Positions 3,574 to 31,822 of a stretch of DNA of 64,000 nucleotides are shown in pieces. Each line of letters starts with the position of its first letter. Positions within the stretch are counted from its first letter, which is position 1. The stretch comes from an uncultured Actinomycetes bacterium (GTDB lineage Bacteria > Actinomycetota > Thermoleophilia > Gaiellales > JAICJC01). The stretch spans positions 192,895 to 256,894 of the forward strand of contig CAWGSU010000003.1 of NCBI GenBank assembly GCA_963825325.1, given 5' to 3'. The position numbers and the translations under genes were made by a program. The notes beneath the pieces were generated by a model, which searched no databases, had not been told where the DNA came from, and saw nothing but the letters and a program-made list of their open reading frames with translations.

Positions 3574-4560
3574 GTGATGAGTGATGAGCGCAGAGATCGG
3601 GAGAGAGCATCATCGAGTCCGGGCGCTGCGTGGCGTTGGGGTGTGCGCCGGTACCACGCCGCAGAGGAGCGGTTCCGGCAGGAACGAGACCGGCTCGAGC
3701 AGAAGCCGTTTTTCGGGTTCGTGCTCGCGTCGGTGCGGCGGTTCGGTGAGATCGAGGGCAAGCACCTCGCGATCGTGATCGCGATGAACCTATTCGTCGC
3801 GGGCATCCCCCTCCTGATCGTTGGCTACGCCGTGTTGGAGGCGTTCAACCCGAATCACAACTTTGGCCAGGTTCTCGTGACCATGTTCCACCTGGACGGA
3901 GGCACTGCGCACACCGTCGACAACACGTTCACAAACGCGCGATCCGGCAAAAGTGTAGCCCTTAGCATCGGCGTGATCTCCCTGCTCATCACCGGCTTTG
4001 ATATCAGCGCAACTGTCCAGGTTGCCTACGCTCGGGCCTTCAAGATGACGCCGCTCCGAGGTGTTCAGAAGTACGTGCGCGGGGCTGTGTGGTTGCTCGT
4101 GCTGCTAGTCCTCACCGGGCTCTTGCTGACCCTGCGCTACTGGGTAGCCCAGCACTCGAAGTGGGTTCTGCTCGGTGCTCTGCCGCTGTCGCTCGCGATC
4201 GAGTTTGGATTCTTCGTGCTCACGCCCCGCCTGCTCCTCGACCTGCCGTTCGCTTGGCGCGATCTCGTCCCCGGCGCCGCGGTCTGCGCTGGCGTCTCTG
4301 TTTTCGTGCACGCGTTCGTCGCGTACTCGCTGCGCAACTGGTTTGCGGAATACAGCCACGCCTACGGAGCATTCGGCATCGCGCTGGCGATCCTGGCGGC
4401 CGTGGGGATCATCGCCGCCTTCTGGGTGTGGATCGCGGCCACAATGGGCGTCTTCTGGGAACGAAAGGCTGGCTCAACAACGGTGATTGCGATGGAACAG
4501 GTATCCGCCGCACTCGGCGCACCACATGATGGCTCTCACCGGGTGACCCCAGATGAATAG
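3574..4560 (+). CDS. YihY/BrkB-family membrane protein
   Basis: 328-aa ORF. FGEIEGKHLAIVIAMNLFVAGIPLLIV followed by about 6 TM segments is typical of YihY/virulence factor BrkB. Confidence 0.7.
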   Translation: MMSDERRDRERASSSPGAAWRWGVRRYHAAEERFRQERDRLEQKPFFGFVLASVRRFGEIEGKHLAIVIAMNLFVAGIPLLIVGYAVLEAFNPNHNFGQVLVTMFHLDGGTAHTVDNTFTNARSGKSVALSIGVISLLITGFDISATVQVAYARAFKMTPLRGVQKYVRGAVWLLVLLVLTGLLLTLRYWVAQHSKWVLLGALPLSLAIEFGFFVLTPRLLLDLPFAWRDLVPGAAVCAGVSVFVHAFVAYSLRNWFAEYSHAYGAFGIALAILAAVGIIAAFWVWIAATMGVFWERKAGSTTVIAMEQVSAALGAPHDGSHRVTPDE

Positions 4561-4745
4561 GCGGCGCGCGATTGAGGCCTCGGGAACTGGGAGCTCCAGT
4601 CGGTGGATCTGAATCCGTGACGACGGCAGCGGCGATCCGCCAACGGCCACGACCCGTCCCATTAGTCACACCTACGGTGCACCCGCGAAGCCGGCCTCAA
4701 GCGCGAGACCGGCCTAGCGGGCTCCGTTTCAAACCATCGTCGCCG

Positions 4746-4955
4746 TCATGCGTGCGCTGCCGGCGCGTGCCGATCCTGGACGACATACGCGAGGATCAGC
4801 GCGAGCGGGAAGAACAGCAGGCTGAGTAGGAAGTAGCCGAGGAAGCTATGACCCTTGCGGCCGGCGACACGCGCGGGCCAGAATGCGATCGCGATCCAGA
4901 TGATGAGTCCGAGAACCCCGAACGCAAATCCAAGCACGGATGCGAGGACGAGCAT
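4746..4955 (-). CDS. small two-TM membrane protein
   Basis: 69-aa ORF MLVLASVLGFAFGVLGLIIWIAIAFWPARVAGRKGHSFLGYFLLSLLFFPLALILAYVV, with two clear hydrophobic helices. Confidence 0.6.
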   Translation of the reverse strand: MLVLASVLGFAFGVLGLIIWIAIAFWPARVAGRKGHSFLGYFLLSLLFFPLALILAYVVQDRHAPAAHA

Positions 4956-5094
4956 GGTAACCCTCCTTTGTCGCTCGCGACACTACGGCTGACTCGGGGG
5001 TGGGGCATCGGCGGATCCACCGATCCGGGTTGCGGGTTTCCCGCTTGCGGTGCCCATTCTCCTGTCGCCTAAGGATCCAGCGCCGGGCTTTCGA

Positions 5095-5637
5095 CTAACA
5101 GTCGCGGCGCGGCGAGGAGGGGTATGCCAGGAATGGAGAGCCCCCTCGGATCGCGGCGTTCAACGGCTGGATGCAGATTGCAGGGTCGCCGTCGTCGTGG
5201 GCAAAACCTGTCAGGTCGCCGACAGCGAAGGCCCTCGCTGCTGCGCGTTTGGCCGCCAGCGCCACTCCGACGGCGGGCACAAACCGGCCGTACAGGACTG
5301 GTGCGAGCGTCGTCCCGCGAACCGGTTGGGAGAGAACATCCTCAACCAGGCGCCGCAGCACCCGAATCTGCTCGTGGATCGCGCCGGCGCAGACCACGAC
5401 TGGCCTCCGTCCCTCGAAGCACTTGTCGATCCACTGCTGGTCGGCGGTTCGCACACGCGACCAGTCGGCCGCGATCGCCGAGCGAAGACCGATCACCTGC
5501 GCCACGCTCGGCGAGCGCAAACTCGGCGCCACCGAAGGAGGCATCGACGGCGAAGGCGACAGGTATCCATACGCCGTTACGACGACGATCGCCTCGACGA
5601 TGGCCCCGAACACTGCCGTTCGGATCCGCGACGGCAA
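5095..5637 (-). CDS. hypothetical protein
   Basis: 180-aa ORF. Wobble-position GC was about 85% in a 60-nt sample. Composition is more balanced than the S/T/R-rich same-phase plus ORF 5171..5746. No family recognised. Confidence 0.4.
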   Translation of the reverse strand: MPSRIRTAVFGAIVEAIVVVTAYGYLSPSPSMPPSVAPSLRSPSVAQVIGLRSAIAADWSRVRTADQQWIDKCFEGRRPVVVCAGAIHEQIRVLRRLVEDVLSQPVRGTTLAPVLYGRFVPAVGVALAAKRAAARAFAVGDLTGFAHDDGDPAICIQPLNAAIRGGSPFLAYPSSPRRDC

Positions 5638-6207: not shown

Positions 6208-6323
6208 GCCGCCAGCCTAGTAGCTTCGAAGCCCGGGCCGCTCGGCGGGATAGATGGCCCAAGCGCGACGACCGTGAACGGCCGCCGATCCTGGCCTTCC
6301 GCGGTCAGCGCTATGGTCGCCCC

Positions 6324-7016
6324 ATGCGGGTCGCTGCGCTCTATGACATCCACGGCAATGTGCCGGCCCTTCAGTCAGCGCTGGCCGATGTTGCCTCCGC
6401 GGGCGTTGGTGCGATCCTGGTCGGTGGCGATGTCGTCGAGGGCCCCCAGCCCGTGGAGACGCTCGACCTGCTGGAGTCGGTTGACATCCCGCTGCGATGG
6501 CTCAGAGGCAACTGTGACCGAGAACCGAGCGAGTGGGTGGCCGAGCGCCTGGGCGAGCGGCGTGTTGCATGGCTGGCCGCGCTGCCGCCGACCGACCGGA
6601 TCGACGTCCGCGGCCTGGGGCCGGTGCTCTTCTGCCACGGCTCGCCGCGCAACGACGAGGATATCGTCACGGCCGTCTCGGACCCCGACCGGGTGGCTCC
6701 GATGCTGGCCGGTGTCGAGGAGGCGATCGTCGTCTCTGGACACACCCACGTCCAGTTCGACCGGTCGGTGGCCGGCCACCGGCTGATCAACGCAGGCAGC
6801 ATCGGGATGCCCTATCAGGGCGTCGCCGGCCGCGCGTTCTGGACACTCCTCGGGCCGGGCGTCGAGCCGCGCACCAGCGCCTTCGACGCCGACGCGTTCA
6901 CGTCGATCCTGCGCTCGACCGGCTATCCCCACCCGGAGTGGTTCGAGGTCGAGACGGCCGAGGCCGCTGCGGAGGAGTACGAGCAGATGGCGCGCGAGCA
7001 AGCCGCCGGCTCGTGA
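6324..7016 (+). CDS. metallophosphoesterase
   Basis: 230 aa with MPP motifs DIHGN, GGDVV, CHGSP and SGHTH. Confidence 0.9.
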   Translation: MRVAALYDIHGNVPALQSALADVASAGVGAILVGGDVVEGPQPVETLDLLESVDIPLRWLRGNCDREPSEWVAERLGERRVAWLAALPPTDRIDVRGLGPVLFCHGSPRNDEDIVTAVSDPDRVAPMLAGVEEAIVVSGHTHVQFDRSVAGHRLINAGSIGMPYQGVAGRAFWTLLGPGVEPRTSAFDADAFTSILRSTGYPHPEWFEVETAEAAAEEYEQMAREQAAGS

Positions 7017-7038
7017 GACGTTCGACGATGTAGACCGA

Positions 7039-7120
7039 GTGTTACGCTTTGCGCCTCGCGGGGACTCCCCAAACAGCCTTCCCGGGAGCCATTTGACGGG
7101 AAGGTAGATACTGGAGTTCC
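7039..7120 (+). repeat. mosaic repeat copy 1: arm A - core - arm D
   Basis: Core CCCGGGAGCCATTTGACGGG at 7081-7100. The left arm GTGTTACGCTTTGCGCCTCGCGGGGACTCCCCAAACAGCCTT is homologous to the other A arms. The right arm AAGGTAGATACTGGAGTTCC is unique. Confidence 0.9.
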
Positions 7121-7286
7121 TCGTCGGACTAGCCGTGACGCAGATCGTCTCGGTGGGCTGTGCTGACCGTAGTTCGCATTCGACGGGCGGCGCGTGGAGT
7201 CGCTGAGGCGGGAGCGAACTGGCGTCGTGGGTGGATGGGTAACGGCCCAATCGGGGTGCCGCGGAGTGGTGTGTGAGAATGCGCCG

Positions 7287-8634
7287 ATGAAGCCTGAGAC
7301 TCGGTACGCGCTGAGCGGCGACGTCCACATCGCCTACCAGATTTCTGGTGACGGCCCGTTCGACCTCGTCTTCGTTCCCGGCTTTGTGACGCACATGGAG
7401 CTCCAGTGGAAGCTGCCGGGGTTTCGAGGAGTTTCTGGCCGACTTGGGCTCGTTCTCGCGCTTGATCCGGTTCGACAAGCGTGGAACGGGCATGTCCGAC
7501 CCGGTGGCCGGCGCGCCCAGTCTGGAGACGCGCATGGATGATGTCCGCGCGGTGATGGACACGGTGGGTTCGCGGCGCGCCGCCTTCTACGGCCTGTCGG
7601 AGGGTGCCGCGTTGAGCATCCTGTTCGCGGCGACCTACCCCGAGCGGACTGCGGCATTGGTCGTCCGCAGTTGCTCGCCCCGCACGATGTGGGCGCCGGA
7701 TTACCCATGGGGACGAAGCGAGGACGCATATCAGCGCGAGGTCGACCAGGGTCTCCAGGTCTACGGCTCAAGGTCGGAGGCTCGCGCCGCGATGCGCGAG
7801 CTTGGAATGCACGACGGGGACGAGATCGAGGCGTTCATCGACTATGTCCGCCTGGCGACAAGCCCGGGCATGCTGGAGGGTCTGTACCGCATGAACAAGG
7901 AGATCGATGTCCGCGATGTGCTTCCCGCCGTCCGCGTGCCGGCACTGGTCATGCACGGAAGCGAGGATGCCGTCGTCCCGGTCGGTGCGGGGGCATACAC
8001 CGCCCAGCGTCTCAGCTCTGCCCGGTTCGTGGAGATCGAGGGAATGGGGCACCTGGCGCTCCGGGCCGGGGGCGATCGCATCCAGCGCGAACTCGAGCAG
8101 TTCCTCACCGGCGTGTGGGAGACCGGCGGGTGGGAGGAGTCGGAATCTGACCGGATGCTCGCGACCGTCCTGTTCACCGACATCGTCGATGCCACATCGA
8201 AGGCGATCGAGCTCGGGGATCGGCGCTGGAGCGAGCTGCTCGAGCGCCATCACACCTTCATACGACGGGAACTGATTCGGTTTCGCGGGCGCGAGGTGGA
8301 CACCGCCGGAGACGGGTTCTTCGCCACCTTCGACGGTCCGGCGCGCGCAATTCGCTGCGCCCGCTCGATCGTCGACGGAATGCACCATCTCGGTCTCACC
8401 GTCCGCGCGGGCCTGCACACCGGAGAATGCGAAGTGGCAAACGGGAAGGTCTCGGGAATCGCCGTTCACACCGGCGCACGAGTGGCGGCGCAGGCACTCT
8501 CTGACGAGGTGCTCGTTTCGAGCACCGTCAAGGACCTCGTCGCCGGGTCAGGAATCACGTTCACCGAGCGGGGACTGCGTGAGCTCAAAGGCATCCCGGG
8601 CGAGTGGCGACTGTTCGCCGTCGACAACACCTGA
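7287..8634 (+). pseudogene. alpha/beta-hydrolase plus class III adenylate/guanylate cyclase fusion, interrupted by a 1-nt frameshift
   Basis: The N-terminus MKPETRYALSGDVHIAYQISGDGPFDLVFVPGFVTHMELQWKLPG is in frame 3. The continuation FEEFLADLGSFSRLIRFDKRGTGMSD is in frame 1. The switch is at CCGGGGTTT, about 7416-7424. Length 1348 = 3n+1. Cyclase motifs LFTDIVDAT and DTAGDGFFATF are present. Confidence 0.8.
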
Positions 8635-8761
8635 ATCTCTGTGTTGCAGCCTCCTTGATCGGTGGAAGCAGCCCGACCACTAGGCGAGTCCGGGCTCCGA
8701 GGTGTCGCCGCTGACGTGAACCACCGCCACGCCGGCGACTTGTTCCCAAAGGCGCCTGCGT

Positions 8762-8861
8762 CGCGGATGACGTGTCCGCGTTCCTGCAATCCCTATAACC
8801 TGGGAGCCATTTGACGGGAAGGCTGTTGGGGAGGCTCAGCGAGGTGCGAGCCGTAACGCGG
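8762..8861 (+). repeat. mosaic repeat copy 2: arm C(rc) - core - arm A(rc)
   Basis: Core variant CCTGGGAGCCATTTGACGGG at 8799-8818. The left arm ...TTCCTGCAATCCCTATAA is the reverse complement of the arm right of copy 4. The right arm AAGGCTGTTGGGG...CGTAACGCGG is the reverse complement of A. Confidence 0.9.
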
Positions 8862-9080
8862 TGGTCAGTCCGATCCCACGAGGCGTCCTTCGGGCCGGCT
8901 CGGAAGGCCGGTCCCGGCTGGAGTCACCGCCCGCGCGGCGGGTTGGCAAGCACATCGAGTCGGAGATTGCCCTGTGCGTCGCCATAGATCGCGCCCCGGA
9001 CACGTGCCTCGAAACGCCGTTAGAGTCGCGTGTTACGAGTGGGTGCCTTCGTGCCAAGCGGGCTCTCAAGGAGTGGGTGA

Positions 9081-10565
9081 ATGGCGCGGATTGTGGTGGT
9101 TGGAGGTGGAATCGGCGGCCTCAGCGTGGCGCTGCTGCTCGGTCGTGGGGGTCACCAGGTGACGGTGTGTGAGCGCGACCCGGCGCCTGCGCCGTTGAGC
9201 GCGGATGATGCGTGGACGGGGTGGCGGCGGCCGGGTACCCCGCAGGCACGGCTGGGGCATTCGTTCCTAGCGGGCTTTCGGCGGGCGTTGCGCCAGCGCC
9301 TGCCCGACGTGCTCGACGCGGTGCTGGCCGCCGGCGTGCCCGAGCTTGACATGACGATGTGGATGGCCGACGGCGTGGAGCGAGTGCCGCAGGACGCCGA
9401 GCTCTTCATCGTGCGAGCGCGGCGACCGGTTGTGGAGGCCGTGCTTCGACGGGCAGCGGAGGCGGAGCCGACCGTGCAGGTACGAGCTGGATGCCGTGTG
9501 CAAGGCCTGCTGGCCGATCCGCCACGGCCACGCGACGTTCCTCGGGTTACCGGCGTCGCCACCTCGCGTGGGGCGATCACCGCCGATGTCGTGGTTGTGT
9601 CCGGCGGCCGCTCGGTGCCGGTCGCGCGCTGGTTCCAAGCGATCGGAGCGACCACTCCAAACGAGCAGTCGGAAAGCTGTGGATCGGCGTGCTACACCCG
9701 CTACTTCCGGACGCTTGCCGCAGACGATGACGACGCGCGGATCGATACCGGTCCGACAATCCACCGCGACCCCGGCTACCTCCTCTACGAGGTATGGGGT
9801 GCCGACAATCACACCTTCGCATGCGAGATTGCAGTCCCCGTCTCCGACCAACCGCTGAAACAACTGCGCGACGAGGCAACCTGGATGGCGGCCGCAGCGG
9901 CGATGCCCGAGTGGCAGGAATGGATCGACCCGGAGCGTTCCCAGCCGATCACTCCCGGGGTGGACGTGATGGGCAACGAGCGCAACACCCTGCGACGATT
10001 CGTCGAGGACGATCGGCCATTGGCGCTGGGAGTGCACGTGATCGGCGATGCCCGCTGCCAGACCGACTCGCTGTACGCGTGGGGGTGCGGCAACGCGCTG
10101 ATGGCAGCGGCGGCAGTGTCCGACGCGATCACCGAGCACGCCACCGATGCCGAGGCTCAGGCGCTCTCCCTCGCCGCTGCCGTGGACGAGGAACTGGAAG
10201 GACGCTACGCGTACTCAGTCGCAAGGAATCGCGCCCGCGACCGTGTCCTTCGAGCCGAACCGCGCTGGGACACGATGAACACGGGCATCGGACTCATCGA
10301 CGGCGTGCTCCTCCCCGCCGCAGACCACGACGCGGAGGTCTACCGCGCCGTTTACCGGTGGGACTTACAGCTCGACCCAGCCGCCAACCTCGAACTGAAC
10401 GCGGCGGTGATCGAACGGGCACGAAAAACCGTTGGAGACCCCACCGAGCCCCCGCTCGACACCGAGGGCATACCCACCCGCGACCAATTACTGGAAGCGA
10501 TCGTCGGGAGCCCGGGATCCCGCCGGCGAACAGTGAGTCTGGGCCCTTTGTCGAGCGGCAACTGA
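9081..10565 (+). CDS. FAD-dependent oxidoreductase
   Basis: 494 aa with N-terminal dinucleotide-binding motif IVVVGGGIGGLSVALLLGRGGHQVTVCE. Confidence 0.85.
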   Translation: MARIVVVGGGIGGLSVALLLGRGGHQVTVCERDPAPAPLSADDAWTGWRRPGTPQARLGHSFLAGFRRALRQRLPDVLDAVLAAGVPELDMTMWMADGVERVPQDAELFIVRARRPVVEAVLRRAAEAEPTVQVRAGCRVQGLLADPPRPRDVPRVTGVATSRGAITADVVVVSGGRSVPVARWFQAIGATTPNEQSESCGSACYTRYFRTLAADDDDARIDTGPTIHRDPGYLLYEVWGADNHTFACEIAVPVSDQPLKQLRDEATWMAAAAAMPEWQEWIDPERSQPITPGVDVMGNERNTLRRFVEDDRPLALGVHVIGDARCQTDSLYAWGCGNALMAAAAVSDAITEHATDAEAQALSLAAAVDEELEGRYAYSVARNRARDRVLRAEPRWDTMNTGIGLIDGVLLPAADHDAEVYRAVYRWDLQLDPAANLELNAAVIERARKTVGDPTEPPLDTEGIPTRDQLLEAIVGSPGSRRRTVSLGPLSSGN

Positions 10566-10582: not shown

Positions 10583-10630
10583 CCCGGGAAGGCTGTTGGG
10601 ACATCCCGCGAGGTGCGGGTCGTAACGCGG
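10583..10630 (+). repeat. mosaic repeat copy 3 (partial): CCCGGG + arm A(rc)
   Basis: CCCGGG is joined directly to AAGGCTGTTGGGACATCCCGCGAGGTGCGGGTCGTAACGCGG. The core segment AGCCATTTGACGGG is missing. Confidence 0.8.
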
Positions 10631-10744
10631 CCCTGCGGTAGCGAGATGTTGGGCACCTGAAACGTTCCGCGCCGCTGAAGCACCGTAGAGAGGGCGAACA
10701 CGAGGGCGGCGAGAGTGCGAGGACGCCGGCTATGTCCGCTCACA

Positions 10745-11031
10745 GCCGACGGCCCGCCGATGCCCTGCCGGTCGGCGGTGTCGGCGTGGTCGAGGTCCGG
10801 CGAGTCGCGGAAGATCTCGTCGACGGTCGCGTCTGGGCGGGCGAGTTCGTCGGCGACGGCGGCCTGGTGCTGCGGGAGCACCTCGTCGTTGAGCTCTTCG
10901 AGCATCGCGCGCAGTCGGCGGTTGACCTGGATGGCGGTCGCGCCGTACTCGCGGATCTTGGTTACGCCGAGTGCGAGGGAGTCGGCCCAGCGACGAGTGT
11001 GGATGACGACGTGTCCGGCCTGCGAGAGCCG
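10745..11031 (-). pseudogene. 3' remnant of a DUF2254-family gene
   Basis: Minus frame reads RLSQAGHVVIHTRRWADSLALGVTKIREYGATAIQVNRRLRAMLEELNDEV...ADRQGIGG, resembling a DUF2254 C-terminus. An in-frame TGA at 11032-11034 cuts off everything upstream, and there is no N-terminal part. Confidence 0.5.
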
Positions 11032-11036
11032 TCAGC

Positions 11037-11055
11037 CCTGGGAGCATCTCATAGG
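11037..11055 (+). repeat. possible degenerate core copy
   Basis: CCTGGGAGCATCTCATAGG against CCTGGGAGCCATTTGACGG: the first 9 nt are identical and about 15/19 match overall with one gap. It sits exactly at the truncation point of the DUF2254 remnant. Confidence 0.3.
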
Positions 11056-23653: not shown

Positions 23654-23971
23654 ATGAAGACGTTGCTCGCTGTGCTTGTCGGGGTGCTTGCGGCGATCGG
23701 TGCCGCCGTCGTCGCTCTCGTGTTCTTGCGGAAGAAGCCGGACTCGTGGGGCCCGGCGGTGAGTTCCGCTCGAGACACGGCCACCTCGTGGGGGAAGTCC
23801 GCGGCCGACGGGGCGAGCCAGGCCGCCGACAAGGTTGCGGCCACCGCTGCTGATGCCACCGATGCGGCGAGCAAAGCCGCCGACAAGGTTGCGGCCACCG
23901 CCGAGGGTGCGACCGATGCGGCATCCACAGTCGCCGATCAGGCGAAGAGCATGGTGCGCAAGGGCACCTGA
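23654..23971 (+). CDS. membrane-anchored alanine-rich repeat protein (YtxH-like)
   Basis: RBS GAGGAGG plus ATG 23654. Product has an MKTLLAVLVGVLAAIGAAVVALVFL anchor, then two 18-aa repeats AADKVAATA(A/E)(D/G)ATDAAS. Confidence 0.7.
   Translation: MKTLLAVLVGVLAAIGAAVVALVFLRKKPDSWGPAVSSARDTATSWGKSAADGASQAADKVAATAADATDAASKAADKVAATAEGATDAASTVADQAKSMVRKGT
23822..23901 (+). repeat. in-frame 54-bp tandem duplication inside the YtxH-like gene
   Basis: GCCGCCGACAAGGTTGCGGCCACCGC occurs at 23822-23847 and again at 23876-23901. Confidence 0.7.
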
Positions 23972-24070
23972 CCGAGTCGGTCTGCACGGGCGCCGTGGCG
24001 GCCTGCGTGGAAAACGATAGGGACCTGCTGCCGTTACCCTCAGCCTGCTCGACAGCCAGACAATCCGGTC

Positions 24071-24162
24071 GTGCGGCGTTTCGCCCTCTCTATCTACTCT
24101 CCCGGGAGCCATTTGACGGGTTATAGGGATTGCAGGAAGTCGGACACGGGGGGCATCCCGAC
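24071..24162 (+). repeat. mosaic repeat copy 4: arm B(rc) - core - arm C
   Basis: Core at 24101-24120. The left arm GTGCGGCGTTTCGCCCTCTCTATCTACTCT is a 30/30 reverse complement of 27676-27705. The right arm is TTATAGGGATTGCAGGAA plus hairpin GTCGG..CCGAC. Confidence 0.9.
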
Positions 24163-24314
24163 GTGGCGACGCGGCTAGGGTACGCCTCCGGTTCCACGCC
24201 GTCGAGGGCGGCGGCGACGACGATGGCGTCGCCCGCTTCCACCCGATCGGCAGCCCGCCACGTTCCGAGCAGCCGCTCGGGATCCCCGCCCGCAGGGCCA
24301 GCGGGTTAGCGACC

Positions 24315-25520
24315 TCAGTCGTGCGGCGGCGATTGTTCGACGGCGTCCTCGCGTCGGGGGAGGCGGACGCTGATATCGAGGCCACCCGTGGGCATGGCGG
24401 TTGCTTCTACCGTGCCGCCGTGTACCGCGGCGATTGATGAGACGAGGGTGAGACCGAGTCCGAAGCCGTCGTGGCGAGTGCGGTCATCGAGGCGGGTGAA
24501 CGGCAGGAACAGCCGGTCGACTTGATCGGGTGGTACGAGCGGGCCGGTGTTGGCGACTCGCACCACGGACGCGCCGTTGTCGGTTCCGGTCGAAATCGTG
24601 ACAGTGCCGCCCGCGATGTTGTAGCGCTCGGCGTTCGAGAGGAGGTTGGCGACGAGCCGTTCGAGCAGGACTCCGTCGCCGGTCACGGGAGCTTCATGGA
24701 GTGCAGTGGTCGTCGTGATCCCGTTTGCGGTACGTCCCTCGAGTGCGTCTTCGGAAACCGCGGCGAGATCCAGCGGTTCGGTGAGGGTACGCGCCTGGTC
24801 GTTGCGTGCGAGTACCAGCAGTGCCTCGATGAGCCGCTCGGAGTGACCGACCGCCTGGCGGACCTCGGCGGCCATCGACACCAGTTCGTCGCGCGCTGGC
24901 TCGGGCTTGGCGAGGACGACGTCGATGGCCGTGCGCATCACGGTCAGTGGCGTTCGGAGCTCGTGGCTCGCGTTGGCGATGAACTGCCGCTGGCTGGTGA
25001 AGGCGCGGTCGAGGCGTTCGAGCATCGTGTCGAAGGTGTCGGCGAGCTCACGCAGCTCGTCGCGCGGTCCCTCGAGAGCGATGCGCTGGGACAGATCTTG
25101 CTCGCTTGCCGCGCGAGCAGCTGCTGTCAGCTGGTGGACCGGGCGAAGGATGCGTCCGGCCACGATCCAGCCCACAACCACGGCGAGCGCGATGACTCCG
25201 GTCAGGGTGAGGAGCGAGTACGTCAGGAGGTGGGTGAGCGTCGTGCTGCGCTGAGCGGCGGCGCCGGCCCGGACACCGTTCGCGTACACGTCGCCGCACT
25301 TCTGCAGAACGCTGGAGCTGACACCACCACGGTGCGACGCGGCTTGCAGGCACCTCTCAAGCGCTGGTCGGATCGCGGTCGGGATCGTCGTCGGAGTCGC
25401 CCGGTTCAAAGTGTGCGCGACCAGCAGGTAGGTGATCAGTACCAGCGCGGCGCCGCCCACCGCGAACAGCGACGTATAGACCAGCGTCAGTCGCGACCGG
25501 GCGCTGAGCGGGCGACTCAC
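24315..25520 (-). CDS. sensor histidine kinase
   Basis: 401 aa with two N-terminal TM segments, H-box FIANASHELRTPLTV, and ATPase boxes NLLSNAERYN and GFGLGLTLV. Confidence 0.9.
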   Translation of the reverse strand: MSRPLSARSRLTLVYTSLFAVGGAALVLITYLLVAHTLNRATPTTIPTAIRPALERCLQAASHRGGVSSSVLQKCGDVYANGVRAGAAAQRSTTLTHLLTYSLLTLTGVIALAVVVGWIVAGRILRPVHQLTAAARAASEQDLSQRIALEGPRDELRELADTFDTMLERLDRAFTSQRQFIANASHELRTPLTVMRTAIDVVLAKPEPARDELVSMAAEVRQAVGHSERLIEALLVLARNDQARTLTEPLDLAAVSEDALEGRTANGITTTTALHEAPVTGDGVLLERLVANLLSNAERYNIAGGTVTISTGTDNGASVVRVANTGPLVPPDQVDRLFLPFTRLDDRTRHDGFGLGLTLVSSIAAVHGGTVEATAMPTGGLDISVRLPRREDAVEQSPPHD

Positions 25521-26182
25521 AGCCGGTAGCCGACACCGACGACGGTCTCGATCAGCGGCGGCTCCCCGAGCTTCCGCCGCAAACGTGCAATCGTGACGGC
25601 GACCGTATTGCTAAATGGATCGGCGTTCTCGTCCCACACGTGTTCCAGTAGATGCTCGGCGCTGACCGGTGCGCCGTCCGCGTCGGCCAGACACTCCAGC
25701 ACGCCGAACTCCTTGCGGGTCAGGGTCAGCGGGATGCCGGCGCGGCTGGCACGGTGCCGCGCACGATCGACCACCAAGTCGCCTCTGTGCACGACCGCGG
25801 GTGAGCCGGGCCCGCGGCGCCCAAGCGCGCGGATCCGCGCGATCAACTCGTGGAAGGCGAATGGCTTGCCGAGGTAGTCGTCTGCGCCCAACTCCAATCC
25901 GTCGACCCGATCCTCGACGTCTGCGGCAGCAGTCAGCATCAGGATGCGGCTCGACAAGCCGTCGCGCACTAGACGCCGGCAGACCTGGTCGCCGTGGACG
26001 GACGGCAGGTCGCGGTCGAGCACAACCACGTCGTATTCCGTAGCCGTGGTTCTCTGCAGCGCTGCCGAGCCGTCGTAGACCACATCGACGGCGAATCCGG
26101 CGTCGCGCAGACCCTCGCCGATTCGGTTGGCCAGCGCGACGTGATCCTCCACAACGAGCACGCGCACATCCACATTCTGCAC
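25517..26182 (-). CDS. OmpR-family response regulator
   Basis: 221 aa with receiver motifs VLVVEDH and VVVLDRDLP and a winged-helix C-terminus LTRKEFGVLECLA...VGVGYRL. There is a 4-nt overlap with the kinase gene. Confidence 0.9.
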   Translation of the reverse strand: MQNVDVRVLVVEDHVALANRIGEGLRDAGFAVDVVYDGSAALQRTTATEYDVVVLDRDLPSVHGDQVCRRLVRDGLSSRILMLTAAADVEDRVDGLELGADDYLGKPFAFHELIARIRALGRRGPGSPAVVHRGDLVVDRARHRASRAGIPLTLTRKEFGVLECLADADGAPVSAEHLLEHVWDENADPFSNTVAVTIARLRRKLGEPPLIETVVGVGYRL

Positions 26183-26287
26183 TGACCCAGGTGACAGCCG
26201 CCTAACAATCGCTGTTCGGCTCCTGTCATCGTCTGGGTGCTAAACCGGACAGGCAACGCCCCGCGATGTCCATGAACGGAGCAGCCG

Positions 26288-27601
26288 ATGAATGTCAGAG
26301 CAGCGAGTTGCAACGCACGCCGATCACAGGGCGCGGAACGCGACATCCGCTTAGTGTGGGTGGAAGCGGCGCTCGCCATTGCCGCGTTGGCTGCGCTGTG
26401 CGCCGCGGTCCTGTCGGTGCCGCCTCAGGCCGCAGAGCCCGATGACGGCGCCTATCACGCATCGATCGTGGCCACAACCGAAGGGCACTTCCTGACCTTG
26501 TCGACCGCTCAGGCGGAAACCCTGGCGGGGAAGCTACGAGACAACCCGGCCGCGCCCCCGAACCAGTGGGTTGAGGTGACCAGTGGGCGGTGGATCAGCG
26601 AGAAAGACCCCGGTTACCCGTTTGTTGCGGCGCCGTTCCAGAAGTTGGGCCTTGTTCGGTTGGCGCCGCTGTTCTATGGGGCGCTGGCGTGCCTCGGGTT
26701 GTTCTTCGGCGCCCGGCGCTGGCTAGGGCGCTTCGGCGGGCCTGCAGCCGTAGGCCTGTACTGCTCCTCCGGAGCGGCGCTCGCGTTCGCCTGGCGCGAC
26801 TACATGCCGACCTTCACCGATGCATCGCTAATCGCGGCGGGTTCGGGCGCCCTGCTGTGGGCGGTGCTGGCGACCGAGGCCAGCTCTCGGCGGCGCACCT
26901 GGGTCGGCCTCGCCGGATTCCTGGCGATCGAGATCGCAACATTCGTCCGCTACACCAACATCGTGATCCTCGGCTGCGCAGTCGTGGCCGTCATCGTGGC
27001 GTGGCGGCTGCAGTCCACGAGACTGCCCCTCCGCGCGCTGTGCTGGTGGCTTGCCTCGGTGGCCGCCTTCGGCGCCGGCGTGGCCATCTTCAACGACCAG
27101 GTCTACGGCGGCCCGCTGACAAGCGGGTACCCGCCCGGAGAGGTCACGTTCAGCGCCAGCGCGATCGTGCCGAATCTGCGGATCATGCCCGCGCATCTCA
27201 TGCAGGCCATGCCGATGCTGGTGTTGGGACTGATCTCACTGGCCTGGATCATCGTGCGGTGGCTAGTGCTGCGCCGCGTCGGCGGAGAAGTCGGCGCCAC
27301 GGCTCGTCGCGATCTCTGCGTCGCCCTCCCCCTCGCAGCGTCATGGTTCGCGATCTGGGGTCTGTACTCGGCGTACACCTGGACAACCGATCCGACCAGC
27401 GTCACAGTGCAGGTCGTCAGGTTCTACCTCCCGGCGATCGGTGCGATCGCGCTGCTCGGTGCCTGGCTCGTGACCAGGATTCCCGGCCGCCCACGGCGCG
27501 TCGGCCTAACCTCAACCGCCGTCATCGCTGTGCTGTTCGGCCTCGGCGTCTGGGCGTTTCACGCCATGTACGCAGCGTTTGGCGTCCCACTGGGCGGCTA
27601 G
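26288..27601 (+). CDS. polytopic membrane protein, GT-C / family-39-like glycosyltransferase
   Basis: 437 aa with about 10 TM segments. The N-terminal loop SEKDPGYPFVAAPFQKLG resembles ArnT/PMT-type enzymes. The start is uncertain. Confidence 0.6.
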   Translation: MNVRAASCNARRSQGAERDIRLVWVEAALAIAALAALCAAVLSVPPQAAEPDDGAYHASIVATTEGHFLTLSTAQAETLAGKLRDNPAAPPNQWVEVTSGRWISEKDPGYPFVAAPFQKLGLVRLAPLFYGALACLGLFFGARRWLGRFGGPAAVGLYCSSGAALAFAWRDYMPTFTDASLIAAGSGALLWAVLATEASSRRRTWVGLAGFLAIEIATFVRYTNIVILGCAVVAVIVAWRLQSTRLPLRALCWWLASVAAFGAGVAIFNDQVYGGPLTSGYPPGEVTFSASAIVPNLRIMPAHLMQAMPMLVLGLISLAWIIVRWLVLRRVGGEVGATARRDLCVALPLAASWFAIWGLYSAYTWTTDPTSVTVQVVRFYLPAIGAIALLGAWLVTRIPGRPRRVGLTSTAVIAVLFGLGVWAFHAMYAAFGVPLGG

Positions 27602-27614
27602 GCAAGCCGGAGCT

Positions 27615-27705
27615 GCGTTACGGTCCACACCTCTTCCAAGCCTCCCAACAGCCTTCCCGGGAGCCATTTGACGGGAGAGTAGATAGAGAGGGCGAAACGC
27701 CGCAC
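27615..27705 (+). repeat. mosaic repeat copy 5: arm A - core - arm B
   Basis: Core at 27656-27675. The left arm is GCGTTACGG...CCTCCCAACAGCCTT. The right arm is AGAGTAGATAGAGAGGGCGAAACGCCGCAC. Confidence 0.9.
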
Positions 27706-27766
27706 GTCTCGCGGGGCGCGGGTTACACGTACGGCGAGTGATCGACGAGGCCGAGCCCGTCGGGCA

Positions 27767-28873
27767 CTAGCCGCAGAAGTCGGCGATGACGCATTCGAGG
27801 GCGCCCACGCAGCGGTCGAGCTGATCGAGGTCGACCCACTCCACCGCTGCGTGGGCGCCCTCGCCGCCGGGCCCGAAGATGACGGTGGGAATGCCGGCAG
27901 CGGAGAAGATGGCGCTGTCGGCCCAGCCGATACCGCCGGTCACGGGCGCCTCCTGGCCGAGCGCTCGGCGAGCAGCCGCCACGATCGGAGCGTCCGCGGC
28001 AACCTCGAACGGCTCGCGCACGAGCGTGGTGTGCAGCGTGGCGTCGGCGTCGCCAAGCAGGGCGGTCAGCTCCGCTTCGACGATCTCGATCGTCTCGCCG
28101 GGGAGAGTGCGCCGCTCGAGTTGGAGGCGGCACGACTCGGGATAGGTCGAGAGCTCGCGGCCGCCGTCGATGATGGACGCGTGGATCGAGCCCGGGCCGA
28201 GCAGCGGATGGCCCGAGCGCCCGATCAGCTCGGCCGCGAAGCGGTCGAGCTCGACCAGGACCGGGCCCATGCGAGCAATGGCATCGACGCCGTCCTCGGG
28301 CCGCGACCCGTGCGCGGCTCGGCCGCGGACGACGATCTCGTGCCAGGTGAAGCCCTTGTGCGCGATCGCGACGGTTATCTCGGCGCCGGTGGGCTCGGTG
28401 ACGATCGCGGCGTCGGCCCGCACCGACTCGGCGACGGCCTGGGCGCCGACCGAGGCGAACTCCTCGTCGCAGACGGCGGCAACGATGACGTCGCCCGCAA
28501 CGCCCCGCTCGGCGGCGTTGGCGGCAGCCACCATGATGGCGGCCAGGCCGGCCTTCATGTCGTACGCGCCGCGGCCGTAGAGGCGGTTTCCCTTGACCCG
28601 CGGCGAGAAGGGGTCGGCCATTCCGTCGACGCCAACGACATCCATGTGAGCGTACAGGAGCAGCGGGCGGCCGCCGCCCTTCCCCCGCGTCCGGGCGACG
28701 ACGTTGGGCCGGCCAGGCTCGACGTCGGCAATGTCGACATCGAGGCCGCGCTCGGACAGCCAGCCGCCGACGAACCGGGCGATCTCGCCTTCCCCCGCGC
28801 CGCCCGGGACGAGGCTGGGGTTGATCGAGTCGATGGCGACGAGGTCGGCCAGTAGCGCCCGGGCATCCTCCAC
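27767..28873 (-). CDS. M20-family metallopeptidase (ArgE/DapE/acetylornithine deacetylase-like)
   Basis: 368 aa with LLLYAHMDVVGV, CDEEFASVG, and a dimerisation-domain insertion. Confidence 0.9.
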   Translation of the reverse strand: MEDARALLADLVAIDSINPSLVPGGAGEGEIARFVGGWLSERGLDVDIADVEPGRPNVVARTRGKGGGRPLLLYAHMDVVGVDGMADPFSPRVKGNRLYGRGAYDMKAGLAAIMVAAANAAERGVAGDVIVAAVCDEEFASVGAQAVAESVRADAAIVTEPTGAEITVAIAHKGFTWHEIVVRGRAAHGSRPEDGVDAIARMGPVLVELDRFAAELIGRSGHPLLGPGSIHASIIDGGRELSTYPESCRLQLERRTLPGETIEIVEAELTALLGDADATLHTTLVREPFEVAADAPIVAAARRALGQEAPVTGGIGWADSAIFSAAGIPTVIFGPGGEGAHAAVEWVDLDQLDRCVGALECVIADFCG

Positions 28874-29206
28874 GCGGTCACCCTACCAACTGGGCTTCGG
28901 CCGCGGAATGAGCGAAACGCACACAACCGAGGCGAGGATTGGAGTCAAACACCATCCGGTCCACCGTGCGACAGGCGTGACGGGGGTGTGACGTCTAGCC
29001 CGCGTTCGCGGCGGCGAGACACCATACGGGGGCAGACTGACGCCGCACCCCGCACGGATGGGATATCCACCCCGCGCCGCCCGCTCTGCAGGCAGGCCGA
29101 AACCGCCGGTAGGCGGCTTCCGCTTGCCGCTCGGTCAGTGAGGCGACGTGATCGGCACAAGCTCTCAGAATGATGGGCGGGGTGCCCGAGGGTTCGTGCG
29201 TGGCGC

Positions 29207-29253
29207 AGTGCGGCGTTTCGCCCTCTCTATCTACTCTCCCGGGAGCCATTTGA
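29207..29253 (+). repeat. mosaic repeat copy 6: arm B(rc) - core (first 17 nt only)
   Basis: GTGCGGCGTTTCGCCCTCTCTATCTACTCT plus CCCGGGAGCCATTTGAC, then unique sequence TCCGTCCGACCC leading into the lexA promoter. Confidence 0.9.
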
Positions 29254-29284
29254 CTCCGTCCGACCCACCTGGCACACTGTGACC

Positions 29285-29298
29285 CGAACACATGTTCG
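29285..29298. promoter_or_regulatory. LexA operator (SOS box)
   Basis: CGAACACATGTTCG is a perfect palindrome matching the Gram-positive/actinobacterial CGAAC-N4-GTTCG consensus, 18 nt upstream of the lexA ATG. Confidence 0.8.
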
Positions 29299-29315
29299 AC
29301 CCCAGGAGGGTGGCG

Positions 29316-29951
29316 ATGGATCTGTCCCAGCGGCAGAAGGAGATTCTCGAGTTCGTGAACACCCACGTCGATGCCCACGGGTATCCACCGACGGTGCGTG
29401 AGATCGGCCAGGCGGTCGGGCTCACCTCGCCGTCAACGGTGCACGCGCACCTCGCGAAGCTTGAGGCGGCGGGCCTGATCCGGCGCGACGCCACCAAGCC
29501 ACGCGCGCTCGAGGTGATCGAGGGCGGCCGTTCCCGGCGCGGCCCTGCGCCCGCACCTGTCCCCGCCGCCCCCGTCGGCGCGACCGTCCTGCCGCTCATC
29601 GGCCAGGTCGCCGCCGGCTCTCCGGTCGTCGCCGAGGATCAGATCGAGGAGTACCTGCCGCTGCCCGACCAGTTCTGCGGCAACGCCGACTACGTGCTCG
29701 CCGTGCGTGGCGACAGCATGATCAACGCTGGCATCCTCGACGGCGACTACGTCGTCGTGCGCAAGCAATCCGAGGCCAGGAACGGCGAGATCGTCGTCGC
29801 CCTCGTCGGCGACGAGGACGCGACGGTGAAGCGCTTCTTCCGCGAGAACGGGCGCGTGCGCCTGCAGCCGGAGAACGATGCGCTCGAGCCGATGTACCCC
29901 GACCAGGTGGCCATCCTGGGCAGCGTCCAGGCGGTGTTCCGCAGGCTATGA
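29316..29951 (+). CDS. lexA: LexA repressor
   Basis: RBS AGGAGGG plus ATG 29316. Product MDLSQRQKEILEFV...GYPPTVREIGQAVGLTSPSTVHAHLAKLE. Cleavage and peptidase region VRGDSMINAGI...VKRF. The earlier ATG at 29292 lies inside the SOS box. Confidence 0.95.
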   Translation: MDLSQRQKEILEFVNTHVDAHGYPPTVREIGQAVGLTSPSTVHAHLAKLEAAGLIRRDATKPRALEVIEGGRSRRGPAPAPVPAAPVGATVLPLIGQVAAGSPVVAEDQIEEYLPLPDQFCGNADYVLAVRGDSMINAGILDGDYVVVRKQSEARNGEIVVALVGDEDATVKRFFRENGRVRLQPENDALEPMYPDQVAILGSVQAVFRRL

Positions 29952-30190
29952 CCACGGCGCTGACTCGCTCCGGCCCCGGCGGCCAGATGCTCGAGGACGT
30001 CATCCTGGCGGCGCTGGCCGCAGGGCGCGTCCGCCAGGCGGGCCGGCGCCCGGCCTGCCCGGTCTGCGGCGAGGCCATGTGGGCGTTCGACCGCGGGGCC
30101 GACGCTGCCGAGCTCTGCTGCAGCGGCTGCGGGTCGAGGCTGTGGGACGAGTCTGCGGTGGACGAGCGGGAGCTGCGCCTCACCGCCTGA
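29948..30190 (+). CDS. small zinc-ribbon protein downstream of lexA
   Basis: 80 aa with an ATGA overlap with the lexA stop. Two CxxC pairs: CPVCGEAMW...CCSGCGSRLW. Confidence 0.55.
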   Translation: MTTALTRSGPGGQMLEDVILAALAAGRVRQAGRRPACPVCGEAMWAFDRGADAAELCCSGCGSRLWDESAVDERELRLTA

Positions 30191-30250
30191 CGCGGCGCCC
30201 GGTCGCCGGTACCACCCGGCCCGGCGCCGGCCGGCTGCGACAATCGTTGT

Positions 30251-31342
30251 GTGCGCCTCACCCGCCGCCAGATGCTCCTGTCGGGGTCGATGCTGCTCGC
30301 CGGGGCCTGTACCCGGCCCGGGAGCGAGACGGCTCCACAGCGATTCGGCTCGCGGCTGTCCGGGCCGAACGTGCAGGTGCTCGACCGCCGCCTCGTGCTC
30401 GCGTTGCCGCCGGGCGACGTGGCGCCCACCACGATCTCGTCGTTCACGAGCGAGCTCGGTGTCAAGGTCACCGTCGTCCCCGGCCGGCTCGACACGGTCA
30501 CCGACGTCGGCCGGTCGGACGTCGCGCTGATCGACGACGTGACGCTCGCCGGCCTCATCCAGGCCAACCTCGTCGAGAAAATCGACCGCAGCCTGGTCTC
30601 GAACGCGAAGCTCCTCCTGCCGCCGTTCGACAACCCGTCCTACGACCACGGCGGCCGCCACAGCGTGCCGAAGGATTACGTCACCGTCGGCTTCGCCGTC
30701 TCGACGCTCGACGTCCCCGTGCCACCGTCGACCTGGAGCGGGTTCTTCCACCTCTCCGCGACCTTCCCCGGGCGCGTCTCGGTCCCGCCCGACCGCGACG
30801 TGGTGATCGGTGCCGCGCTGACCGCAGCGGGTCACGACTGGAACTCGTCCTCGAGCTCCGACATGGCCGACGCCGCCGACATCCTGCTCCCGTTGCGCGA
30901 GGATCTCGTGATCGGCGGGTCGATGGTGCGCCGCAGGCTCGGGCCGCCCATCGTGGCGGCGCTCTGCTACGGCGTGGGCTTCGTGACTCCGCCGCCCGGC
31001 GTCCGCTTCGTGGTGCCGCGCGACGGCACCCTGGCCCGCGCGCGCTGCTACTGCATCCCGCCGTTTGCACCCGACCCTGTCTCGGCCCACGCCTGGCTGA
31101 ACCACACGCTCGACCCCGCCGTCGCCGCCGCCGAGACGCGCTACACCCACCGGGCGACGCCGGTCGGGCCCGCCCTGTATCAGCTGCCAACCTCACTGCT
31201 CGCCAACGAGGCCGTCTTCCCGCCGGCGCTTCCCCCCGTGCCACTCTCGTTCACCGCCGTCAGCCCGGCAGGCGCCCAGCTGCGCGCCGACCTGTGGCAG
31301 GAGCTCACCTCCACCAGGCGGCGTCGGCTCGCGCCACGGTAG
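30251..31342 (+). CDS. ABC-transporter substrate-binding lipoprotein (polyamine/PotD-like)
   Basis: 363 aa. Signal MRLTRRQMLLSGSMLLAGAC. Pattern DVALIDDVTLAGLIQANLVEKID...SVPKDYVTVGFAV. Confidence 0.7.
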   Translation: MRLTRRQMLLSGSMLLAGACTRPGSETAPQRFGSRLSGPNVQVLDRRLVLALPPGDVAPTTISSFTSELGVKVTVVPGRLDTVTDVGRSDVALIDDVTLAGLIQANLVEKIDRSLVSNAKLLLPPFDNPSYDHGGRHSVPKDYVTVGFAVSTLDVPVPPSTWSGFFHLSATFPGRVSVPPDRDVVIGAALTAAGHDWNSSSSSDMADAADILLPLREDLVIGGSMVRRRLGPPIVAALCYGVGFVTPPPGVRFVVPRDGTLARARCYCIPPFAPDPVSAHAWLNHTLDPAVAAAETRYTHRATPVGPALYQLPTSLLANEAVFPPALPPVPLSFTAVSPAGAQLRADLWQELTSTRRRRLAPR

Positions 31343-31349
31343 ACTCATA

Positions 31350-31698
31350 TCGCCGATCGGACAGTCGCGACGCCCTCGGGCGCCGAGGAAAGTCGGGACA
31401 CCGCAGGGCAAGGGTGCCGGGTAACGCCCGGACGGGGAAACCCGATGGAAAGCGCAACAGAGAGCAGACCGCCGACCGGCGTCCCTCGCGGACGTCGCGG
31501 CAAGGGTGAAACGGTGGTGCAAGAGACCACCAGCGCCCGCGGAGACGCGGGCGGCTAGGCAAGCCCCACCCGGTGCAACGCCAAACGGAGCGATGACGCG
31601 GCCCGCCGAGCTCCAGGTAGGCGGCACGAGCCGGCCGGCAACGGCAGGCGTAGATGGATGACTGTCCCCGACAGAATCCCGCTTAGAGATCGGCTAAA
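31350..31698 (+). ncRNA. rnpB: RNase P RNA, bacterial type A
   Basis: Universal blocks GAGGAAAGTC, AGGGTGCCGGGTAACGCCCGG, GCAACAGAGAGCAGACCGCC, AAGGGTGAAACGGTGGTGCAAGAGACCACC and TAGATGGATGACTGTCCCCGACAGAATCCCGCTTA. P1 pairing GCCGATC/GATCGGC. Confidence 0.95.
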
Positions 31699-31699
31699 G

Positions 31700-31727
31700 G
31701 AAAGCCCTGCAAATGCGGGGCTTTCCC
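31700..31727 (+). terminator. hairpin immediately after rnpB
   Basis: GGAAAGCCCTGC-AAAT-GCGGGGCTTTCC gives a 12-bp stem with one G-U pair. There is no U-tract. Confidence 0.45.
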
Positions 31728-31822
31728 ATTCAAGGAGTGGGGCTGGCGCCGACCGTCACGGCCGTGTCGGCGCGGAAGCCTGGCGAACTTGTTCGTAACG
31801 AACGTGTTCGTTAGCATGCAGT

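Follow-up and report, generated by a model that had tools for sequence, protein, structure and literature searches.

A lexA-linked array of inverted-repeat gene cassettes with genome-specific 14-nucleotide cores in an uncultured Gaiellales actinobacterium

RESULTS

A repeat-bounded gene array lies upstream of lexA

We analysed a 64-kb stretch of contig CAWGSU010000003.1 from an uncultured Gaiellales actinobacterium (hereafter the window, meaning the whole stretch of 64,000 nucleotides), in which copies of a short repeat alternate with accessory genes upstream of lexA. An earlier note, based on the letters of the window alone, had drawn attention to the segment 10583–11055 of this region, where a repeat arm and a degenerate core bracket the remnant of a gene of the DUF2254 family; it had not recognised the arrangement of the repeats as a whole. 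Over the 73 kb of this genome covered here, the repeats make up an array of cassettes linked to lexA and are not scattered. Five identical 14-nucleotide (nt) cores, GGGAGCCATTTGAC, are present, all on the plus strand between 7084 and 29254 (Table 1; the 20-nt version of the core starts at 7081, 8799, 24101, 27656 and 29238), and the array extends over ~22 kb just upstream of lexA. Exact 13-mers of the core number five, all within 7085–29254, as against 0.97 occurrences expected for matches with at most two mismatches. No core copy was found in the 35 kb to the right of the array within the window or in 9 kb beyond the left edge of the window, and all repeat copies in 73 kb of this genome and in three relatives cluster within 22 kb of lexA. 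Searches for the core in GTDB species genomes, JGI metagenomes and IMG/VR returned just one or two chance-like matches.

The cores are flanked by arms of three families, of which the window holds four A, three B and two C copies (nhmmer E=1e-10 to 1e-14); rc marks the reverse complement of an arm. The B copies are identical and the C copies 93% identical, while the inverted pairs of A arms are ~75% complementary. From left to right, the junctions read A1, core, unclassified arm (7081); rcC, core, rcA2 (8799); rcB, core, C (24101); A4, core, B (27656); and rcB, core, lexA upstream sequence (29238). Between them lie accessory genes: a hydrolase-cyclase gene, an FAD oxidoreductase gene, a 13-kb block, a two-component system and a peptidase M20 gene, the last in a cassette with perfect 34-nt inverted repeats between direct 14-mers. 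The junctions at 8799, 24101 and 27656 together hold the six half-arms of three inverted-repeat pairs in cyclically permuted order, and rcB plus core gives 47–55 nt of perfect identity between 24071–24117 and 29208–29254.

Two structural explanations of the repeats were discarded. A structured RNA finds no support in Rfam, which has no match to them at its gathering threshold or even at E≤5; the sole Rfam match in the window is RNase P. Hairpin or cruciform sites were likewise rejected, since no present site folds better than shuffled sequence (z −1.2 to +0.6).

At the right edge of the array, the CGAACACATGTTCG palindrome stands in front of lexA (29316–29951; identified by Pfam), and we take it to be an SOS box of the actinobacterial type. 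TTGAC, the only part of the 14-mer that is conserved in all four genomes compared below, lies 17 nt upstream of CACACT, just ahead of CGAACACATGTTCG. A sigma-70 consensus scan of the lexA site called no promoter, so that a role of TTGAC as the −35 box of lexA is only conjecture.

Table 1 Features of the array and of the segment 10583–11055 (window coordinates)
Feature	Position	Strand	Remarks
Arm A1, left arm of site S1	7034..7083	+	Downstream of metallophosphoesterase gene; E=7.9e-12; also at L014 unoccupied site
Core copy 1	7084..7097	+	Left edge of 22-kb array
Unclassified right arm of S1	7098..7141	+	First 13 nt (GGGAAGGTAGATA) resemble A and B, rest diverges; undetected by arm models
Arm rcC, left arm of S2	8752..8801	+	E=2.5e-11; 93% complementary to 24119–24148
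Core copy 2	8802..8815	+	
Arm rcA2, right arm of S2	8816..8861	+	Upstream of FAD oxidoreductase gene; E=8.7e-14; 88% identical to L015 17350–17409
FAD-dependent oxidoreductase gene	9081..10565	+	In L014, L015 and L016 at other positions and in opposite orientation relative to lexA
Solo A-type arm rcA3	10586..10632	+	No 14-mer; fused straight to FAD gene 3' flank; E=6.2e-12
Possible B-arm fragment TAGAGAGGGCGAA (B positions 12–24)	10686..10698	+	Best sub-threshold arm-B match in window, E=2.6; suggestive only
DUF2254 gene remnant	10745..11031	-	Last ~95 codons of ~430-codon gene, stop codon lost
Probable decayed rcC-like arm	10998..11039	+	Overlaps first recognisable DUF2254 codons (AGHVVIHT)
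Probable decayed core	11040..11053	+	First 6 nt (GGGAGC) kept, remainder diverged
Arm rcB, left arm of S4	24068..24103	+	E=1.1e-10; 100% complementary to 27672–27706
Core copy 3	24104..24117	+	
Arm C, right arm of S4	24118..24165	+	E=8.3e-11
Histidine kinase, response regulator and 437-aa unknown-protein block	24290..27658	.	Ends in arm A4 (27610–27658)
Core copy 4	27659..27672	+	
B-type cassette: arm B, peptidase M20 gene (27767–28873, minus strand), arm rcB	27673..29240	.	Inverted repeats perfect over 34 nt
Core copy 5	29241..29254	+	Array right edge, followed by lexA upstream region
CGAACACATGTTCG palindrome	29283..29296	+	In front of lexA

Several other features of the window lie in or beside the array. 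The class A bacterial RNase P RNA gene occupies 31349–31701 (235 bits). G+C content is 64–69% on the array side (1–29000) and 70–77% beyond lexA (30000–64000), and the low-G+C stretch extends at least 9 kb past the left edge of the window (contig L011). The alpha/beta-hydrolase-adenylate cyclase gene (7288–8634) is frameshifted in the window (7194–7560) and intact, with 448 codons' worth of protein (448 aa), in contig L005, which is 99.9% identical; this is the one indel between the two in 20.5 kb and may be a real pseudogene mutation or an assembly error. Finally, two tandem 54-nt units, 83% identical, stand at 23805–23912, a region where small genes were called in contig L004, among them a holin-like one (PF07332).

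Related genomes reveal an unoccupied site and genome-specific cores

Three loci from the same sample series (L014, L015 and L016), reached through the genomic context of homologues of the FAD oxidoreductase, were compared with the window. The FAD protein of L014 is 97% identical to that of the window, and the L015 protein 87%. Window 6281–7086 corresponds to L014 5082–4278 at 95% identity and window 29245–31731 to L014 4278–1796 at 81%, and both L014 blocks meet at a single site, ...CAACAGCCTTCCC/CGGCCATCCTTGAC/TCCGTCCGACC... (A arm, 14-mer, lexA upstream sequence). Thus, the metallophosphoesterase gene and the A arm directly adjoin lexA in L014, and relative to this genome window 7087–29244 is a 22.2-kb insertion with both ends inside cores, at 7081 and 29238. 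The unoccupied site holds one 14-mer, and an array of n cassettes holds n+1.

The other two relatives carry arrays of their own. L015 has six junctions on the lexA strand, all with ATCCGCGGTTTGAC (two copies with one or two substitutions). Window 24290–27659 is 98.2% identical to L015 13969–17339; the shared block ends at the tip of A4 and is inverted relative to core and lexA. In L015 the A4 homologue faces the rcA2 homologue across the L015 core, whereas A4 and rcA2 lie 19 kb apart in the window, which indicates that these two arms are the halves of a single junction. L016 has the order A/GCGGGCTCCTTGAC/B ... rcB/GCGGGCTCCTTGAC/lexA upstream; its B arm plus peptidase (3932–5197) is 99.4% identical to window 27672–28937, in the opposite orientation, with identity starting at the tip of the B arm. 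The lexA regions of the window and L016 are only 76% identical. Blocks that are 98–99% identical amid lexA regions of ~76% identity imply that cassettes have probably passed recently between species of the same sample series.

Each genome has its own 14-mer: GGGAGCCATTTGAC in five copies in the window, CGGCCATCCTTGAC in two in L014, ATCCGCGGTTTGAC in six in L015 and GCGGGCTCCTTGAC in two in L016. The four sequences differ, each being identical or nearly so at all junctions of its genome and at the lexA site of that genome, and both of the 98–99% identical blocks are flanked by the 14-mer of the host in which they are found. In all four genomes the left flanks end in ..CC(C), the right arms begin with GGG.., and the lexA site bears an array of two to six junctions. 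These comparisons bear out the suggestion of the earlier note that core sites are, or were, breakpoints of rearrangement: the insertion relative to L014 ends in cores, A4 and rcA2 form one junction in L015, and the half-arms of the window are cyclically permuted.

Further observations were made in the relatives. In L014, 20608–21040 is a 3' remnant of the cyclase gene without an arm at the break; likewise, the FAD oxidoreductase gene of L016 (10001–10915) is cut after 304 codons, again without an arm at the break. A restriction-modification pair (RE_EcoO109I and an N6/N4 methyltransferase; L016 7835–9840) adjoins an array junction, and one L015 cassette (7570–9060) is made up of a virginiamycin B lyase-like gene; both are typical of accessory or defence cargo.

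The segment 10583–11055 holds a solo arm and a DUF2254 pseudogene

The segment begins with CCCGGG and a complete A-type arm, GGAAGGCTGTTGGG...CGAGGTGCG...CGTAACGCGG (10583–10632), which matches the arm after the 20-nt core at 8799–8861. Both elements had been described in the earlier note and both are confirmed, the core plus rcA arm at 8799–8861 by the sequence itself and the arm at 10586–10632 by an arm-A profile of 11 copies from three genomes (nhmmer; E in Table 1). The further proposal that 10583 is a core from which AGCCATTTGACGGG had been lost is not supported. Homology between the window and L015 in the 3' flank of the FAD gene reaches GGTGGC[G/T]CC, ending at 10584–10586, and GGG is the start of every right-hand arm; since the flank supplies CC and the arm GGG, CCCGGG is explained as a juxtaposition in five of its six bases. 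Loss of one 14-bp core is therefore not needed by any of the evidence, and the detail of a stripped core is probably wrong. A reading of the site as an inverted A arm with a core half-site (23/24 match) was rejected on the same ground, the extra bases TGGC.CC being FAD 3' flank that is conserved in L015. Comparable arms are found elsewhere: at L015 12474–12530, immediately past the FAD-TctC block, an inverted A arm is accompanied by a degenerate core (TATTCAGTTTGACGGG), and L015 20135–20167 is a solo C arm without a core; both resemble the solo arm at 10586.

Downstream of the arm, the minus-strand frame from 11031 to ~10745 translates as RLSQAGHVVIHTRRWADSLALGVTKIREYGATAIQVNRRLRAMLEEL...DRQGIGGPS. 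Its assignment to DUF2254 is confirmed: a database search returned 93 homologues, most annotated as PF10011 (best E=1.5e-33 at 71% identity; identities 54–71%), although the Pfam PF10011 match (remnant residues 6–45, profile positions 328–367 of 368, E=5.4e-5) scores 22.6 bits against a gathering score of 28.8, a shortfall that a fragment would be expected to show. In an exhaustive search of representatives, the remnant aligned to residues ~335–427 of full-length proteins of 415–446 aa. Homologues terminate 0–12 residues past ...DRQGIGGP, so the remnant keeps its natural 3' end and lacks just the stop codon. The gene has thus lost its 5' part, with the limit of homology placeable only between ~11019 and ~11100, and is not truncated at its 3' end. 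As had been claimed, the frame has no stop of its own and reads through the repeat, as far as 10294; it also lacks a start codon, and an in-frame stop (11032–11034) marks the upstream edge. A profile of the conserved upstream block (ERTIEQDPAF...NDPTTAVQV), run in six frames over the whole window, nowhere scored above 2 bits, indicating that ~335 N-terminal codons, including the membrane region, are missing. The fragment is a pseudogene remnant.

Three related proposals were examined and dropped. Continuation of the remnant upstream past the stop is suggested by tblastn, which reaches 11100 (LGDSLEL), yet the upstream-block profile finds nothing there. The left flank of the 8799 junction was not retained as a second DUF2254 remnant, an unconstrained local alignment being not significant. 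Recurrent truncation of the gene, suggested by short proteins among the first 93 homologues, proved to reflect short contigs and frameshifted long-read assemblies.

The earlier note had raised the possibility that relatives keep an intact DUF2254 gene here; a search of ±10 kb around the FAD gene found none in L014 or L015. The nearest homologue (L008, L009) stands among unrelated genes (a copper-oxidase context) and is broken up by frameshifts: at L008 9045–10327 and L009 9261–10426 the homologues are divided into two to three open reading frames (ORFs), and many neighbouring genes in L009 are fragmented. These are long-read assemblies from ENA that carry indel errors, and short 'genes' in them are not to be read as truncations. 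The segment 10583–11055 itself recurs unchanged, two SNPs aside, in three independent assemblies (99% identical strains) and hence is no assembly artefact.

A decayed rcC-core junction probably marks the truncation of the DUF2254 gene

The 19 nucleotides at 11037–11055 (CCTGGGAGCATCTCATAGG), put at about 15/19 identity to the core in the earlier note, in fact match it at 12/19 positions without gaps (12/20 against the 20-mer; ~14/20 by a gapped hand count). As many as 294 positions in the window reach at least 12/20, and two further positions, 19207 and 30317, have the exact 9-mer CCYGGGAGC. The core alone is therefore background, which the note itself had named as an outcome that would tell against it, and is credible only when taken together with its left flank. 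There, the arm-C model finds its best sub-threshold match in the whole window (11021–10998, minus strand, E=2.1). This rcC-like arm stands directly left of the 9-mer CCTGGGAGC, on the expected strand and with spacing within 1 nt of that at the 8799 junction, and the anchored alignment of the rcC arm at 11037 gave p=0.007, the best among eight arms tried. Moreover, among the true junctions 8799 alone has an rcC arm and it alone has a CCT variant, and CCTGGGAGC carries the same T. With two independent weak signals, the 9-mer and the C-arm match, coinciding, we regard 11037 as likely to be a decayed rcC-core junction. The claim that the gene was truncated at a core-like site thus fails for the core on its own and probably stands for the junction as a whole. 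The arm-like bases overlap the codons for AGHVVIHT, either by chance or, as may be, through the outer half of the C arm itself being a relic of a DUF2254-type gene. A degenerate B arm was also tried at 11037 and rejected: it fits no better than other GGGAG-anchored sites, 26% of which score equally well.

At the other end of the remnant, ~45 nt separate TAGAGAGGGCGAA from the point where the DUF2254 gene naturally ends, much as the intact B arm is 57 nt away from the stop codon of the peptidase M20 gene (27673–27767). This spacing suggests that DUF2254 may once have been the first gene of a B-type cassette. For the B and the C arm models alike, the best sub-threshold match in the 64-kb window falls in the same 470 nt.

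It is conceivable that the 11037 match arose by chance, that an unrelated deletion truncated DUF2254 and that the solo arm at 10586 is unconnected. In keeping with this are the many window positions that match the core equally well, the two other occurrences of the 9-mer, neither belonging to the repeat family, the lack of a significant unconstrained local alignment between the 8799 left flank and the remnant, the good fit of AGHVVIHT to DUF2254 homologues, and the truncated FAD gene of L016, which ends with no arm nearby. However, the 9-mer and the best sub-threshold C-arm match (in 128 kb, counting both strands) agree in position, strand and spacing to 1 nt, for which we estimate a chance probability of ~2e-4 to 5e-3; the CCT variant is common to 11037 and 8799, the only true rcC junction; and the best sub-threshold B-arm match falls within the same 470 nt. 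We therefore consider coincidence a doubtful explanation of this segment.

Insertion with target duplication as the favoured explanation

The locus presents inverted-repeat arms, identical cores within a genome, an empty site in a relative, genome-specific cores, block boundaries at arm tips and cassettes in flipped orientations. We propose that inverted-repeat cassettes insert at one target next to lexA and duplicate 14 bp of it, a reading to which we assign a probability of roughly 55%. The unoccupied site would consist of an A-type arm ending in CCC, the 14-nt target and the lexA upstream sequence. Blocks of genes with inverted-repeat arms of 30–50 nt at their ends (families A, B and C, all starting with 5'-GGG) would enter this target in either orientation, and every insertion would duplicate it and so create new targets, producing arm/14-mer/arm junctions with all 14-mers in the same direction. 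Cassettes would travel without a 14-mer of their own, leaving each genome to show its own version. From the empty site of L014 we infer that the 14-mers arose as target-site duplications; a transposase-like enzyme, with its gene elsewhere, would have made them. Later recombination between identical 14-mers, excision and reinsertion, and deletion would shuffle and erode the array.

The segment 10583–11055 is, on this account, ordinary erosion debris of old cassette ends. The presumed order of events would leave a solo A arm against the 3' flank of the FAD gene and a 13-nt fragment of a B arm beside the natural 3' end of DUF2254, formerly the leading gene in a cassette; DUF2254 itself would have lost its first ~335 codons at a junction, now reduced to a decayed rcC arm and half a 14-mer.

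A different process could also be envisaged, in which the repeats are passive intergenic palindromes like REP, Correia or MITE elements and the genomes differ through ordinary homologous or illegitimate recombination in a variable region. The 47–55 nt of perfect identity shared by the rcB-plus-core copies would suffice for RecA-type exchange, several block boundaries lie away from arms, solo and partial arms are common, and no enzyme was found. Yet the units are clustered at one lexA-adjacent locus in the compared stretches of four genomes instead of being dispersed, and within a genome the cores are identical although paired A arms reach only ~75% complementarity, the reverse of what a recently amplified repeat would show. 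Exactly one 14-mer at the empty site with n+1 at filled sites, and 98–99% identical blocks that stop at arm tips, further make passive repeats the least probable of the explanations considered for the array.

Site-specific recombination of the integron kind deserves slightly more credit, though we still judge it unlikely. Circular cassettes would here carry palindromic sites with an arm, a 14-nt centre and an arm, a recombinase encoded elsewhere would act on them, and the junctions in 10583–11055 would be secondary-site products. The cyclic half-arms at 27656 (A4/B), 24101 (rcB/C) and 8799 (rcC/rcA2) would follow from one excision and one reinsertion between palindromic sites; L015 displays the predicted parental A4/rcA2 junction and other palindromic junctions; every core points in the same direction; and repeated exchange could keep cores identical within a genome. 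However, near-identical cassettes in two genomes are flanked by the 14-mers of their hosts, and no donor-type or chimeric core was seen. The same cassettes also occur in both orientations against an asymmetric core, which is impossible for a circle that carries its own core. In addition, no integrase was found among the window ORFs, and present sites fold no better than shuffled sequence.

Insertion with target duplication in turn has to contend with several observations. No transposase, recombinase or Cas1 was found in the large ORFs of the window or the gene calls of L014, L015 and L016, so the inserting enzyme is hypothetical. Matching arms bound only two of the four window cassettes at both ends. 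Many junctions are palindromic (in L015, A/rcA twice and rcC'/C), which is commoner than expected and is fitted equally well by a site-centred model; secondary exchange between identical 14-mers, or between the 47-nt rcB-plus-core repeats, can account for the half-arm permutation. Between the window and L014, the 14-mer differs by several substitutions and indels in 14 nt, while the flanks differ at 4/45 and 5/55 positions (hand counts); a 14-mer that diverges faster than its flanks is not predicted by simple target duplication. Several block boundaries fall away from arms (24290, 10511 and L016 10755). As for the junction at 11037, its signals are weak, the core alone being background and the arm p-value rising to ~0.05 when corrected for eight arms, and the rcC-like match overlaps codons that resemble genuine DUF2254 sequence.

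DISCUSSION

Searches of the literature found no description of such an array and no exact counterpart. Among the closest parallels are casposons (Cas1-solo transposons), which in Methanosarcina mazei produce a 14-bp target duplication and of which tandem elements share a single duplication (PMC4779613); the duplicated sequences are specific to each element and host (PMC4779613). The array is like casposons in its terminal inverted repeats, its one preferred target, its presumed 14-nt duplication and its tandem elements sharing one such repeat. Casposons are recognised by terminal inverted repeats with a ~14–15-bp duplication, which the perfect 34-nt B...rcB repeats between direct GGGAGCCATTTGAC in the window and GCGGGCTCCTTGAC in L016 match, and by repeated use of one target, seen here as two to six junctions at the lexA site of four genomes. 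An encoded Cas1 casposase, usually accompanied by PolB, is a further hallmark, and no match to Cas1 or PolB was found among the window ORFs. The array is also unlike casposons in that the cassettes are 1.5–15 kb of ordinary accessory genes, the arms belong to three unrelated families and the host is an actinobacterium.

Integrons share with the array a fixed chromosomal site, accessory cassettes of one to few genes, imperfectly palindromic sites in the same direction, a cassette order that varies between close relatives, and eroded cassettes with gene remnants. However, the attC site of integrons is conserved at its outer ends and borne by the cassette, whereas the array has a conserved central 14-mer that belongs to the host; outer boxes of the attC kind (RYYYAAC ... 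GTTRRRY) are not carried by the cassettes, the conserved element being the host-specific central 14-mer. Cassettes in both orientations and the lack of an adjacent intI also set the array apart, and no recombinase domain, including that of an intI tyrosine recombinase, was detected in the large ORFs of the 64-kb window or the gene calls of the three relatives. The link of the array to lexA is positional, in that it abuts the lexA gene, and not one of LexA control over an integrase.

CRISPR arrays, which grow by duplication of the leader-proximal repeat, resemble the present one in having identical, genome-specific direct repeats that arise from repeated insertion by a fixed flank. Here, by contrast, blocks of genes, kilobases long and ending in inverted repeats, take the place of spacers, the direct repeat measures 14 nt and no cas genes were seen. 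Site-specific transposition also builds islands at one locus in Tn7-type attachment-site islands and IS1202-group elements, some of the latter with 15–17-bp target duplications. Tn7 ends start with 5'-TGT, unlike the arms of the array, and no tnsABCD-like or DDE transposase gene was found in the window.

Going further, the locus might belong to an undescribed gene-capture system of uncultured Gaiellales-like actinobacteria, a tentative idea to which we give distinctly less weight than to insertion with target duplication as such. Non-autonomous cassettes with GGG arms of at least three families would be served by an unlinked enzyme, Cas1-like or new; a 14-nt target duplicated at each insertion would yield a casposon- or CRISPR-like array beside lexA; and the gene blocks would move between species.

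Taken at face value, the array is a locus that collects cassettes outside the integron paradigm, found in a little-known lineage of soil actinobacteria, and through it genomes with lexA regions of only ~76% identity exchange gene blocks that are 98–99% identical. It would then represent natural site-specific insertion with a 14-bp duplication in the absence of a recognisable casposase, and would bear on the origin of repeat arrays such as CRISPR. The proximity of the lexA promoter invites the question whether the SOS response is coupled to insertion or to the expression of cassettes. In annotation, small remnants and solo arms such as those at 10583–11055 would be treated as products of array erosion and not as functional genes.

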